Of a stretch of DNA of 64,000 nucleotides, positions 59,864 to 61,513 are shown piece after piece. Source of the stretch: Escherichia coli (GTDB lineage Bacteria > Pseudomonadota > Gammaproteobacteria > Enterobacterales > Enterobacteriaceae). The DNA lies in NCBI RefSeq assembly GCF_965641715.1, contig NZ_OZ282453.1, one strand, 5' to 3'. A model generated the notes under the pieces. That model had not been told where the DNA came from. It searched no databases and was given only the letters and a program-made list of their open reading frames with translations. The number at the start of each line of letters is the position of its first letter. Positions within the stretch are counted from its first letter, which is position 1. The position numbers were made by a program, and so were the translations under genes.

Positions 59864-60289
59864 TCACAGATACTGCTCCAGTGGTAACTGAAGCGCCTGT
59901 GCAATTTTCTTGAGCTGCGCTTCTTCATCCGGACTAATGCTATCCTGGTCAGCGATATCCAGACAGAGGCACAGTACGTCAACCGCCTCTGTTGTCCCTG
60001 CCACGTCAGCCAGCTGACGGAGGGCTTCAGCATTGGCAGAACGCGGGGATGCTTCATAACGGGCGCGGATATTGGCGCTCATCTGGGCAATCTCACCTGA
60101 GAACAGCGCAAAGGCCGGAAGTGCTGCAATGGTTTTCTCCAGCACTGCGATTTCTTTCGCGTCGCAGGTACCGTCAGCATATGCAATGGAATATGCGCCC
60201 CAGACGGTCGCTTCCACCGCATCGCGATTTTCCATCTTCTTCACCTCAACAATCGCCTTGCAGGTTTTCTTTTTGAAAATACCAAACAT
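59864..60289 (-). CDS. TerB-like or DjlA-N-like domain protein of unknown function (start MFGIFKKK with RBS aaggaa; track ORF extends to 60409)
   Basis: about 141 aa; internal repeats and acidic C-terminus; sits where Stx phages carry stx. Confidence 0.3.
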   Translation of the reverse strand: MFGIFKKKTCKAIVEVKKMENRDAVEATVWGAYSIAYADGTCDAKEIAVLEKTIAALPAFALFSGEIAQMSANIRARYEASPRSANAEALRQLADVAGTTEAVDVLCLCLDIADQDSISPDEEAQLKKIAQALQLPLEQYL

Positions 60290-60779
60290 CGTGACGTTTC
60301 CTTTTAGTGGGAGAGCCTCGCCCCGGGATGAGCAGCCCACAGAGAAAGTCACACCGACCATCCCGTAAGCTCCCCCCCCCTGAAAGGCTCTGTGGTTTTT
60401 GATGTGCACCGGACGTGGCGCGGATATGAAAAAAGCTCGCAGTAGCGGGCCTGGCTACAGGCAAAAAAATACCCGTCCGGAGACGGGCTAACACATTCAA
60501 CATGTAAGAGTGGAACAGCGTTTATTTTAAGTATGGTCGCCGCCAGAATGAGTCGTCAGATTGCAACGCAATTCTGGCAAATCGCAGGCACCAAAACAGG
60601 CAACGACTCATTCTGGCAACGACTTTTTTCCAATAACGCAACTTCATGAACAAAAAAAAGAACAGCACTGTATCCGCTATTGCAGAATGGAGAACAATAA
60701 AAAACCTGAACTATTATTCAACTCGGAAAACCGCCAGTGCTGTAAAAGTCCGTCAGAAATAAAACAATGAAGTTGTGGA

Positions 60780-60856
60780 GAACAGGAATCGAACCTGCAT
60801 CGCCAACCCAGAAGGCTGCGGTAATAGCTACTATACGATACCTGAATAAAGAGCAG
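60780..60856 (-). tRNA. tRNA-like sequence, possibly a degenerate or partial Arg tRNA (argN/argO-like)
   Basis: minus strand has a canonical T-arm GCAGGTTCGATTCCTG and a CTTCTGG loop-like segment, but I could not fold a full cloverleaf or find a matching 5' acceptor strand. Confidence 0.3.
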
Positions 60857-61437
60857 GCCTCCGTAACCACAATAATGATACTGATAACAGACCTTCAATA
60901 TGATTGAACGGAAGCCTACAATGAACCGCAAGACAGCGGGGAACACCGCTGTGAACATAAACTTGCTGTCTTCCGGGTCGGGAGTAATATTACCGATAAT
61001 TCATATGACATCAAAAACTAATTAGTTTTCAGATTTAAAAATATGTATAAATCTGTATCAATTACATACAGTTTATGTTATTCCATCCAGAATTCTGATT
61101 TCGCACAGGAGATTGCGTAAAAACTAACACAAATATAAACGATTTGGGAACACACTGATTCAGTTGTCGCAATAAATAACAGGAAACACTCCGGGAATAA
61201 CAGATCGCAAGACTTACATCAGCAGGAGTTTTTGCAACATTTAACGTTAATTGTATCGTTGATAGAAAATCTATGACGCAATATGGTGAACTAACAGAGC
61301 CTGACGAATATCCCAATTACGCCGAGCTAATAGCGCTGCCAGCTAAACTTGCATGGAATGGTCCGCCACCGGGTGCTCGAACCTCGCACAATCAACTTAG
61401 AAGGCTGATGCTCTATCCAGATGAGCTGGTGGCGGAA

Positions 61438-61513
61438 TGGTGGCCCTTGCTGGATTTGAACCAGCGACCTGGCGATTATGAGTCGCTCGCTCTAACCACT
61501 GAGCTAAAGGGCC
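61438..61513 (-). tRNA. tRNA with CAU anticodon, closest to minor isoleucine tRNA (ileX/ileZ-like); could alternatively read Met
   Basis: minus strand GGCCCTTTAGCTCAGTGGTTAGAGCGAGCGACTCATAATCGCCAGGTCGCTGGTTCAAATCCAGCAAGGGCCACCA folds as a cloverleaf with 7-bp acceptor stem and encoded CCA. Confidence 0.8.

Follow-up and report, generated by a model that had tools for sequence, protein, structure and literature searches.

In the genome of phage P1, the methyltransferase gene dmt and the C1-controlled promoter Pban are followed by genes for tRNA-Asn and tRNA-Thr, by tciA, tciB and tciC, and then by tRNA-Ile(CAU) and ban; P7 is organized alike. This unit is repressed by C1 and thereby stands under the control of the lytic cycle, and its tci genes are transcribed during infection with P1vir (bioRxiv 10.64898/2025.12.28.696737). 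The TerB-type proteins to which TciA is related are better known from the ter operons, which have been associated with resistance to tellurite and colicins and with the inhibition of phages, and later papers on tciA regard its function as being in need of testing (PMC9603915, PMC6799933). Here we describe a relative of the P1 unit that resides in a lambdoid prophage of Escherichia coli, within a stretch of 64,000 nucleotides (hereafter the window) of contig NZ_OZ282453.1 (NCBI RefSeq assembly GCF_965641715.1). It consists of a tciA-tciB pair located between tRNA genes and the lysis cassette, with all features of this interval on the minus strand, and it is preceded by a structured leader RNA into whose predicted fold the Shine-Dalgarno (SD) sequence of tciA is drawn.

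The likeness to the tci region of P1, P7 and D6 is extensive. TciA of the window shares 83% protein identity with TciA of P1 (tblastn), the stop codon of tciA overlaps the start codon of the adjoining tciB, the unit is bordered by phage tRNA genes, one of them for tRNA-Ile(CAU), and upstream of it there is a gene for a DNA methyltransferase. However, the tciC gene of P1 has no counterpart here, the region upstream of P1 tciA is unrelated and without a structured leader, and the P1 genes belong to an early, C1-controlled operon, whereas those of the window are part of a late operon that probably depends on Q. With TerB of the terZABCDEF systems (structures 2JXU and 2H5N), TciA has in common its size, an all-helical fold and the conservation of both 'ADG...E' motifs. 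It differs from the ter systems in its company: TerZ, TerA, TerC, TerD, TerE and TerF are missing from the stretch between the tRNA genes and the terminase genes, as judged from the annotation of the porcine isolate E. coli EC416, which is 99.9% identical to the window across positions 59700-61600, and the partner is instead a 50-aa protein of the DUF3927 family. The tciA loci that we compared likewise carry only tciB after tciA and no other ter genes.

Phage leaders that sequester an SD sequence are known as well. The leader of the lambda N gene is cut by RNase III, T7 possesses RNase III sites, and in the isrK-orf45-anrP locus of Gifsy-1 a small RNA (sRNA) activates the translation of an anti-repressor mRNA. 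The leader in the window resembles these elements in that a long, interrupted hairpin directly 5' of a phage gene occludes the SD sequence, and it resembles the IsrK/AnrP system in that anti-repressor genes are one of the two classes of genes behind leaders of this type. Yet there is no similarity to them in sequence or in covariance models, the isrK model and all other families in Rfam fail to match, and the window leader possesses a pseudoknot and a separate hairpin, P0; the resemblance is thus one of a possible mode of action and not of family membership. The Pas sRNAs of enteropathogenic (EPEC) and enterohaemorrhagic E. coli prophages (PasD/STnc100, PasA and PasC) occur in the same tciB-esterase-holin neighbourhood. 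The start of PasD2 in strain E2348/69 lies some 40 nt behind tciB, and 'TerB' has been listed as conserved near PasA and PasC (bioRxiv paper). These sRNAs, however, end with a terminator and act in trans, whereas the window leader ends at a start codon; homologs of PasA, PasD or Pas/STnc100 were absent from positions 58900-60500, where only the tciB coding region could be aligned to the E2348/69 locus.

A tciA-tciB Pair in the Slot of the Shiga Toxin Genes

A first-pass annotation of the window had placed an open reading frame (ORF) of about 141 amino acids, of unknown and perhaps TerB-like function, between a DNA methyltransferase gene and the lysis cassette, in the interval where phages encoding Shiga toxin (Stx) carry their toxin genes. 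The positions proved accurate: the ORF extends from 60289 to 59864 and encodes 141 amino acids, the methyltransferase gene occupies 62612..61554 and the lysis cassette 59617..58413. The label 'unknown', in contrast, has to be given up. In addition to its relatedness to the P1 protein, the product matches PHROG 632 ('tellurite resistance', moron category) over residues 1-141 of 141 (E=7e-63) and is called a TerB family protein by PGAP. By its sequence it is an ortholog of TciA and a member of a named phage family. The gene tciA (59864..60289, minus strand) starts at an ATG with the sequence AAGGA 8-9 nt upstream. An alternative in which the preceding leader would be coding, as part of a 181-aa ORF with an in-frame extension of 40 codons starting at GTG, was rejected because indels break this frame in relatives and the extension is hence not conserved.

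The suggestion of a TerB-like protein was borne out by profile, family and structure comparisons that agree with each other. TciA alone matches the Pfam TerB family (PF05099) weakly (E=0.002-0.004), and 87 of 91 aligned members of its family do so at E<=0.001, the best at 1.2e-20. A profile of the TciA family aligns residues 14-135 with residues 20-144 of the solved Klebsiella TerB structure 2JXU (E=2.7e-6). The AlphaFold2 model of TciA consists of six helices (predicted local distance difference test score, pLDDT, 90.9; predicted template-modelling score, pTM, 0.83), and the sole significant match of this model in a Foldseek search of the PDB was the TerB-like protein PG1108 (2H5N; probability 1.00, TM score 0.51-0.54). 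The most conserved positions of the family are those of the two 'ADG...E' motifs (D39, G40 and E46; G117 and E122). The assignment of a TerB fold to TciA therefore holds, on the basis of modelling and profile comparison.

The position of the pair is best appreciated next to Stx phages. In the Stx2d phage Stx2_112808, Q is followed by a 65-aa ORF, a gene for a 352-aa methylase, ileZ, argN, argO, stx2A, stx2B, yjhS, S and R. The window contains the same methylase-ileZ-argN backbone at about 90% DNA identity to Stx phages (measured over the end of the methylase gene and ileZ-argN; ileZ differs by 1 base), and this backbone is then followed by tciAB and lysis genes. It differs from the stx locus in the presence of tciAB for stxAB, in the loss of argO, in whose place there is debris with a dead Gly-like tRNA, and in its lysis genes, which are of the type with two holins and a GH108 endolysin and not of the S-R-Rz type. 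Phage JLK-2012 combines Q, three tRNA genes, tciA, tciB, yjhS, S, R and Rz in this order. As the first-pass annotation had stated, Shiga toxin genes are lacking: tblastn searches with Stx2A and Stx2B across the whole 64-kb window yielded chance matches only (best E=0.46), and stxA and stxB were absent from 168 of 168 tciA-bearing loci that we drew from IMG/VR and GenBank. Since the gene order of the window is like that of the Stx2d phage and of JLK-2012 and no stx genes are present, the positional argument is correct; the slot between the tRNA genes and the lysis genes is the stx2AB slot, here holding tciAB. Among the 168 loci, tciB comes next to tciA in all but one and is followed by holin genes or yjhS, and tRNA genes on the same strand lie within 1.5 kb upstream of tciA in about 75% of the 167 loci with enough upstream sequence, in at least 10 combinations.

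The reading of the ORF as alternative cargo in the stx slot was thus right, and the finding itself is real but ordinary. The prophage is 99.4-99.9% identical to porcine genomes of enterotoxigenic E. coli (ETEC), and in EC416 PGAP lists the region as 'tellurite resistance TerB family protein | DUF3927 family protein | tRNA-Arg | tRNA-Ile | DNA-methyltransferase'. The tRNA genes and tciAB are ordinary prophage cargo and already annotated in public genomes. Features that go beyond the first-pass annotation are tciB, a decayed third tRNA, three terminators and the structured leader.

An sRNA of the STnc100 (PasD-like) family is encoded immediately behind stx2B of the Stx2d phage (5293-5507 of the locus compared; 155 bits). 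EPEC E2348/69 has a weaker match of 41.4 bits, under the Rfam cut-off of 47, directly after its tciB gene (3128-3332 of the locus compared), and either kind of cargo in this slot may therefore be followed by a member of this sRNA family. No STnc100 element is present in the window.

The second gene, tciB (59715..59867, minus strand), which follows that of the cytoplasmic TerB-fold protein TciA, encodes a hydrophobic protein of 50 amino acids that PGAP assigns to DUF3927 and that matches PHROG 1470 ('TciB-like') over residues 2-50 of 50 (E=2.5e-24). Its GTG start codon (59867..59865) overlaps the tciA stop by four bases. In 183 of 185 loci, tciB directly follows tciA. Among these are loci of a virulent N4-like phage of Salmonella, of a jumbo phage of Erwinia and of a phage of Pseudomonas whose tciB had previously been left unannotated; in addition, one natural TciA-TciB fusion protein is present in the database (P0070). 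Hence tciA and tciB are a fixed, obligate two-gene pair in temperate, plasmid-like, N4-like and jumbo phages. tRNA genes adjoin the pair in unrelated phages as well, namely in the jumbo Erwinia phage Caitlin (509-1909 of the locus compared), in P1, in P7 and in the Pseudomonas phage Nican01, where about 1.4 kb lie between tciA and a tRNA cluster of opposite orientation.

The hydrophobic nature of the small TciB protein and the vicinity of holin genes, which stand directly after tciAB in at least 80 of the 168 loci and are separated from tciB by only 97 nt in the window, might suggest that TciB and TciA are lysis-timing factors, antiholin-like proteins or holin modulators that functionally form part of the lysis cassette. 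We consider this quite unlikely. The pair is not beside holin genes in P1, in P7, in the Erwinia jumbo phage, in the N4-like phage or in prophages that carry it next to cI; in phages of the JLK-2012 type the 1.9-kb yjhS gene intervenes between tciB and S; in the window an intrinsic terminator (59635..59659, minus strand, found by terminator scan) separates tciB from the first holin gene; and knock-down of tciABC in P1 leaves plaque formation unaffected (PMC10695390).

A Structured Leader RNA in Front of tciA

The unexpected and interesting result of our analysis is the family of leader RNAs to which the region upstream of tciA belongs and which lies partly inside the interval singled out by the first-pass annotation (59864-61513). 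The leader (copy 1; 60287..60421, minus strand; about 135 nt) was recognized by its conservation, by RNAalifold, by covariation and by a covariance model (144.7 bits). Read from its 5' end, it begins with the P0 hairpin and a linker rich in A residues, to which the first strand of a pseudoknot, an anti-SD sequence (CCUUUCA), helix II and hairpin H are joined. The loop of hairpin H bears the second pseudoknot strand, and behind it come the 3' strands of the helices, the SD sequence (AAAGGA) and the ATG of tciA. RNAalifold predicts the P0 hairpin and, involving the SD sequence of tciA, the basal helix CCUUU:AAAGG, together with an 8-bp helix II that is capped by an 11-bp hairpin H, and it recovers the anti-SD:SD helix, helix II and hairpin H unaided. 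The leader is present at every late-operon tciA locus examined, and it is more conserved than the gene behind it: at 43% protein identity of the JLK-2012 TciA, the leader retains about 81% DNA identity. A comparison of upstream regions found it neither in front of P1 tciA nor where tciAB is adjacent to cI.

Compensatory changes speak for this structure at several levels. In 50 distinct leaders of the tciA type, changes on both sides occur at 5 of 37 pairs of the favoured fold (model X plus the pseudoknot), a covariation score that none of 500 shuffles reached. When paralogous leaders are included (23 distinct sequences), both-side changes are found in 21 of 30 pairs and 95 cells, with 93.6% of the cells paired; again 0 of 500 shuffles reached this value, and slid controls remained at <=10 pairs and <=26 cells. 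These best numbers stem from an alignment that was fitted to the model. In an alignment of 16 sequences made by MAFFT alone, however, RNAalifold found the same helices, with compensatory changes at 14 of 27 pairs. The pseudoknot joins 6-8 nt just 5' of the anti-SD sequence to the 3' end of the hairpin-H loop and is present in 17 of 17 distinct sequences in nine different complementary versions, among them CCACAGAG:CUCUGUGG, CCGUAGAG:CUCUACGG, CCAAAGA:UCUUUGG, CACCGA:UCGGUG and CGAGAG:CUCUCG. G·U pairs are frequent and are tolerated on one strand only; the signal is strand-specific because of their number. A competing model Y of the type given by single-sequence minimum free energy (GAGCC:GGCUC and GGGGUGA:UCACCCC) was rejected in favour of model X, as its cells are paired to 97% and show no both-side changes. 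Collectively, the compensatory changes in the aligned sequences make the three leader helices and the pseudoknot well supported as a real structure, and it is the closed, SD-paired fold alone to which the covariation applies.

It could be argued that the leader is non-functional and that what is conserved is a recombination junction, or debris left by terminators in lambdoid mosaics, with the pairing as a by-product of G+C-rich repeats. Elements of this family do sit at module boundaries beside terminators and have been targeted by an element of the IS110 family, the window leader by itself folds only slightly better than its shuffled versions (z = -1.5), and the few both-side changes among tciA-type leaders, like the leader sequences in general, come from a limited number of lineages. 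We nevertheless regard this explanation as very improbable, in view of the covariation among the paralogs and in the unfitted alignment, of the nine complementary pseudoknot versions in the same position, of the strand-specific tolerance of G·U pairs, of the fixed distance at which SD sequence and start codon are found in every copy, and of the conservation of the element in an Erwinia jumbo phage.

None of the 4227 models of Rfam 15 matched (E<=1) the leader at 60287-60421, its second copy at 58241-58374 or the homologous elements of six other loci, and we found no earlier description of the leader in a literature search whose coverage left out most subscription journals.

A run of G residues within the 5' strand of helix II (60368-60376) differs in length, with 9 G in the window and 4-11 in the same position of otherwise near-identical leaders, and looks like a slipped-strand hotspot inside a regulatory RNA. 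In phage PPompW_132418 (4001-5502 of the locus compared) and 10 similar records, the IS110-family element ISEc20 is inserted exactly at the poly-G tract of the tciA leader, and the remainder of the leader, tciAB and the lysis genes are lacking behind it; a preferred target of ISEc20 may be part of the leader. The idea that the leader is itself the end of an IS110 element was rejected, as it is the target into which ISEc20 was inserted in the PPompW prophages.

A Second Leader Copy and the Wider Leader Family

A paralogous leader is present in the same prophage behind the lysis genes (copy 2; 58241..58374, minus strand; covariance model 53.9 bits, E~1e-10). Directly 5' of it, after the endolysin gene, we read from the sequence a terminator-like hairpin followed by U6 (58375..58402, minus strand; AAGGUCGCUUCUGCGGCCUUAUUUUUU). 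Copy 2 is of the type that precedes ant, the gene for an anti-repressor: its identity to an ant leader from an Stx2 phage is 85%, and the reading frame behind it (58190..58243, minus strand) is a stub of 17 codons that begins with MNMIT..., to be compared with MNMMTVPF... of Ant. The stub ends where an AT-rich cassette with an MscS-like gene begins, and homology to Stx2 phages stops near 58230. Leader copy 2 is thus orphaned, its ant gene having been cut off by the insertion of the MscS-like cassette.

A blastn search with copy 2 returned 305 phage records, mostly of Stx1 and Stx2 phages. The covariance model, applied to the sequences already collected for our comparisons, found the leader upstream of ant in the Stx2d phage, in VT2-Sakai and in the Shigella phage 75/02 Stx, upstream of KilA-N or Rha genes in the P22-like phages ST104 and VSe13 and in phage pPE4, and upstream of tciA in the Erwinia jumbo phage Caitlin, where it directly follows tRNA-Cys. 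The ant, KilA-N and Rha genes that possess the leader are placed after the lysis genes. The GenBank entry of phage pPE4 (PP818812, 'Actinobacillus phage vB_Apl-pPE4') is 87-94% identical to E. coli lambdoid prophage sequence across tciAB, the holin genes and both leaders, and the stated Actinobacillus host therefore looks doubtful.

We tentatively propose, at a confidence short of even, that these leaders represent an undescribed class of pseudoknotted riboregulators of lambdoid and other phages that would keep accessory genes of the late operon untranslated until a signal arrives. RNase III cleavage, a phage- or host-encoded sRNA, a small ligand or temperature could be such an opening signal.

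Expression of tciAB and the Life-Cycle Stage of Its Products

A consensus scan for a sigma-70 promoter-like site on the minus strand found none between 60290 and 60500; a weak promoter or one not of the sigma-70 type could escape such a scan. The pair is set off from the tRNA genes by two terminators and from the holin genes by the third one mentioned above. Of the former, one is an intrinsic terminator with a 7-bp GC-rich stem and U7 (60462..60488, minus strand; terminator scan) and the other a terminator-like hairpin with U6 (60429..60450, minus strand) that lies directly 5' of leader copy 1. We recognized the latter from alignments of loci, among which its sequence differs (GGCUCGCUUCGGCGGGCC, GGCUGCGCACGUGCGUGGCC, GGACCGUUCAGUCGGACC and others) while the structure is retained. 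In LMessi and in Klebsiella phage 1 the order is pR'-tR'-leader, so that in these simpler phages tR' itself fills the position of the second hairpin; inserted tRNA genes bring their own terminator hairpin, again of varying sequence and kept structure. Judged by the consensus scan, the module appears to lack a promoter of its own, the defining trait of a classical moron. The orientation of the genes, the missing promoter-like site and the bracketing terminators are sequence features that fit late expression, as the first-pass annotation had proposed for the ORF in calling it a late-expressed moron, and dependence on Q.

On balance we lean, by a modest measure, toward an interpretation in which the interval is a slot for accessory cargo that heads the late operon for lysis and morphogenesis, with tciAB being read by Q-modified RNA polymerase, gated by the leader and active in lytic growth. 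The role in lytic growth is suggested by the presence of the pair in virulent phages, by its repressor-controlled lytic operon in P1 and by the terminator-bracketed stretch, free of promoter-like sites, in which it is found here. After induction, Q-modified RNA polymerase that starts at pR', beyond the end of the window, would read through the terminators, and the tRNAs would be cut out of the late transcript. The leader would keep the translation of tciAB low, or conditional, on an otherwise abundant late mRNA, as it might do for ant elsewhere. RNase III, a trans-acting sRNA, a ligand or heat are candidates, at this point speculative ones, for cutting or opening the hairpin. In the most speculative part of this model, TciA docks on membrane-embedded TciB and acts in lytic growth rather than in the lysogen. 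TciA would then probably buffer envelope or ion stress and thereby prevent colicins or superinfecting phages from de-energizing the infected cell before its programmed lysis. The proposal of a membrane-anchored TerB module is prompted by the phenotypes of ter operons and by the membrane nature of TciB.

Several observations weigh against this interpretation, in addition to the limited lineages, the fitted alignment and the modest single-sequence fold discussed for the leader. AlphaFold modelling of TciA joined to TciB by a linker (18 paired sequences) gave a pLDDT of 74, a disordered linker, TciB as one long helix and no usable interface. We found no experimental test of TciA or TciB function in the literature; the names tciA and tciB derive from homology only, and tciA, tciB and tciC of P1 were non-essential for plaque formation in a CRISPR interference (CRISPRi) knock-down (PMC10695390). 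Both Q and pR' are outside the window, with Q about 0.7 kb past its end when the position is taken from the sister genome EC416, and in EC416 a reverse-oriented two-gene cassette is located between Q and the late genes. By codon count, tciA and tciB do not contain a single AUA, AGA or AGG codon, and the adjacent tRNAs therefore do not serve tciAB. Finally, in prophages of Enterobacter, Rahnella and Yersinia, tciAB is located directly downstream of cI on the same strand, a rexAB-like position typical of genes expressed in the lysogen, and is preceded there by a different, unrelated leader.

The cassette between Q and the late genes begins in the window (63247-64000, plus strand) and continues past its end; in EC416 it encodes a DUF6731 protein and a hypothetical protein of 147 amino acids. 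It would face the late transcript head-on and could be a defence-type insertion.

The cI-adjacent contexts keep alive a rival explanation, according to which tciAB is cargo for lysogenic conversion or defence, expressed in the lysogen against tellurite, pore-forming colicins or incoming phages in the manner of the plasmid-borne ter operon to which it owes its name. The TerB fold that TciA has in common with ter-operon TerB, together with the resistance and phage-inhibition phenotypes of these operons (PMC9603915, PMC6799933), lends it further plausibility. We consider it unlikely for the pair in the window, where no promoter-like site precedes the genes, terminators bracket them and their SD sequence is sequestered. 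Moreover, virulent phages of the N4-like, jumbo and Pseudomonas types, which form no lysogens, possess the pair, P1 carries it in the C1-repressed ban operon, neither protein matches any PADLOC defence model or any NCBIfam model, and the other ter genes are missing, as described above for EC416.

The tRNA Genes and the Surrounding Prophage

The methyltransferase gene (61554..62612, minus strand) encodes a DNA N6/N4 methyltransferase of 352 amino acids (PHROG DNA methyltransferase, E~1e-102; PADLOC MTase_II, E=5e-156; PGAP) and is located upstream of the tRNA genes, as it is in the Stx2d phage and in Stx2 phages. The first tRNA gene (61438..61513, minus strand) has a CAU anticodon and is, as the first-pass annotation had it, well formed (ARAGORN; Rfam 72.7 bits, E=5e-15; the gathering cut-off of the Rfam tRNA model RF00005 is 29 bits). 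ARAGORN labels it 'Met', PGAP calls it tRNA-Ile in EC416, and records of Stx phages name it ileZ; it differs by 1 base from ileZ of Stx2 phages and of human ETEC prophages, and 69 of 76 positions are identical to E. coli ileX. It is an ileZ ortholog and probably of the tRNA-Ile2 type, whose CAU anticodon would read AUA after lysidine modification.

The second gene (61359..61435, minus strand; ARAGORN; PGAP tRNA-Arg) is an argN-like tRNA-Arg(UCU). It exceeds the Rfam cut-off as the first one does, but only marginally (32.3 bits), and compared with argN of Stx phages it contains compensatory changes in the acceptor stem (CCGCCAC/GUGGCGG) and in the anticodon stem (AUCAG/UUGAU), whereas its T stem has 2 mismatches. 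To call it 'possibly degenerate' was fair in view of the marginal score and the two mismatches. The approximately 0.9 kb between this gene and the first terminator (60489-61358, minus strand) is noncoding mosaic debris without a credible gene, which as a whole is common to only 7 E. coli genomes. It takes the place of the argO gene of Stx phages, and its sole recognizable piece is a decayed Gly-like tRNA (60781..60839, minus strand) that scores 23.1 bits, below the Rfam cut-off, covers only model positions 7-64, has lost the acceptor stem, is not called by ARAGORN and is 75-81% identical to prophage genes annotated as tRNA-Gly. Three further candidates were dismissed: a 92-nt 'tRNA-Arg' reported by ARAGORN at 59858..59767 is a false positive that lies inside the tciB coding sequence and is unseen by Rfam, and weak Rfam matches to PhrS (21 bits at a cut-off of 37) and to Plastid-ycf2 (antisense to the tRNA) are due to chance or are artefacts.

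With a dead third tRNA, a weakened T stem in the second, 0.9 kb of debris ahead of the tciA terminators and an ant gene shortened to 17 codons, the whole interval might be seen as the decaying baggage of a defective prophage whose tRNAs and ORFs no longer function. This we hold to be the least probable of the explanations considered here: both tci genes are intact, with 92-100% identity to 80 viral contigs, compensatory changes maintain the acceptor and anticodon stems of argN, ileZ scores 72.7 bits and the leader, against its family model, 144.7 bits, and the head, terminase and lysis genes on the flanks are intact. The latter include the lysis cassette (58413..59617, minus strand), composed of two holin genes (59617..59228 and 59238..58960) and the gene for a GH108 endolysin (58967..58413), all recognized by PHROGs 198, 217 and 315 and by PGAP.

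Upstream of the methylase gene, the window and Stx2 phages have a conserved 75-aa ORF in common (62763-62990, minus strand; PHROG 331, unknown function), in which rare Arg and Ile codons abound (6.7 per 100). In the stretch from the lysis cassette to the terminase gene Nu1, the AT-rich insertion behind leader copy 2 contains a gene for an MscS-like mechanosensitive channel of 338 amino acids (56888-57904, minus strand; 34% G+C). It has 25 AUA, AGA or AGG codons (7.4 per 100, versus none in tciAB), the codon classes expected to be read by the tRNA-Ile2 and tRNA-Arg(UCU) of the prophage. It is present in only 5 of 5426 complete E. coli genomes, all of them porcine ETEC, and EC416 has the same tciAB region without it.

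Implications for Lambdoid and Stx-Converting Phages

By the gene order that we describe, the stx slot of lambdoid phages serves as a general bay for cargo, able to take a tciAB pair of the P1 type instead of toxin genes. Since virulent phages also carry this pair, the textbook label 'tellurite/colicin resistance' would seem to refer to the wrong stage of the phage life cycle. The leader family reaches beyond tciAB, as it is also found ahead of the gene for the anti-repressor in Stx phages of medical importance, VT2-Sakai and phi24B among them. If the riboregulator that we tentatively propose indeed exists, the ant copies of the leader would couple the synthesis of the anti-repressor, and hence the induction of co-resident prophages including Stx phages, to the signal that opens the RNA. 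Control of Ant translation by the leader would consequently bear on prophage induction and therefore on toxin release.

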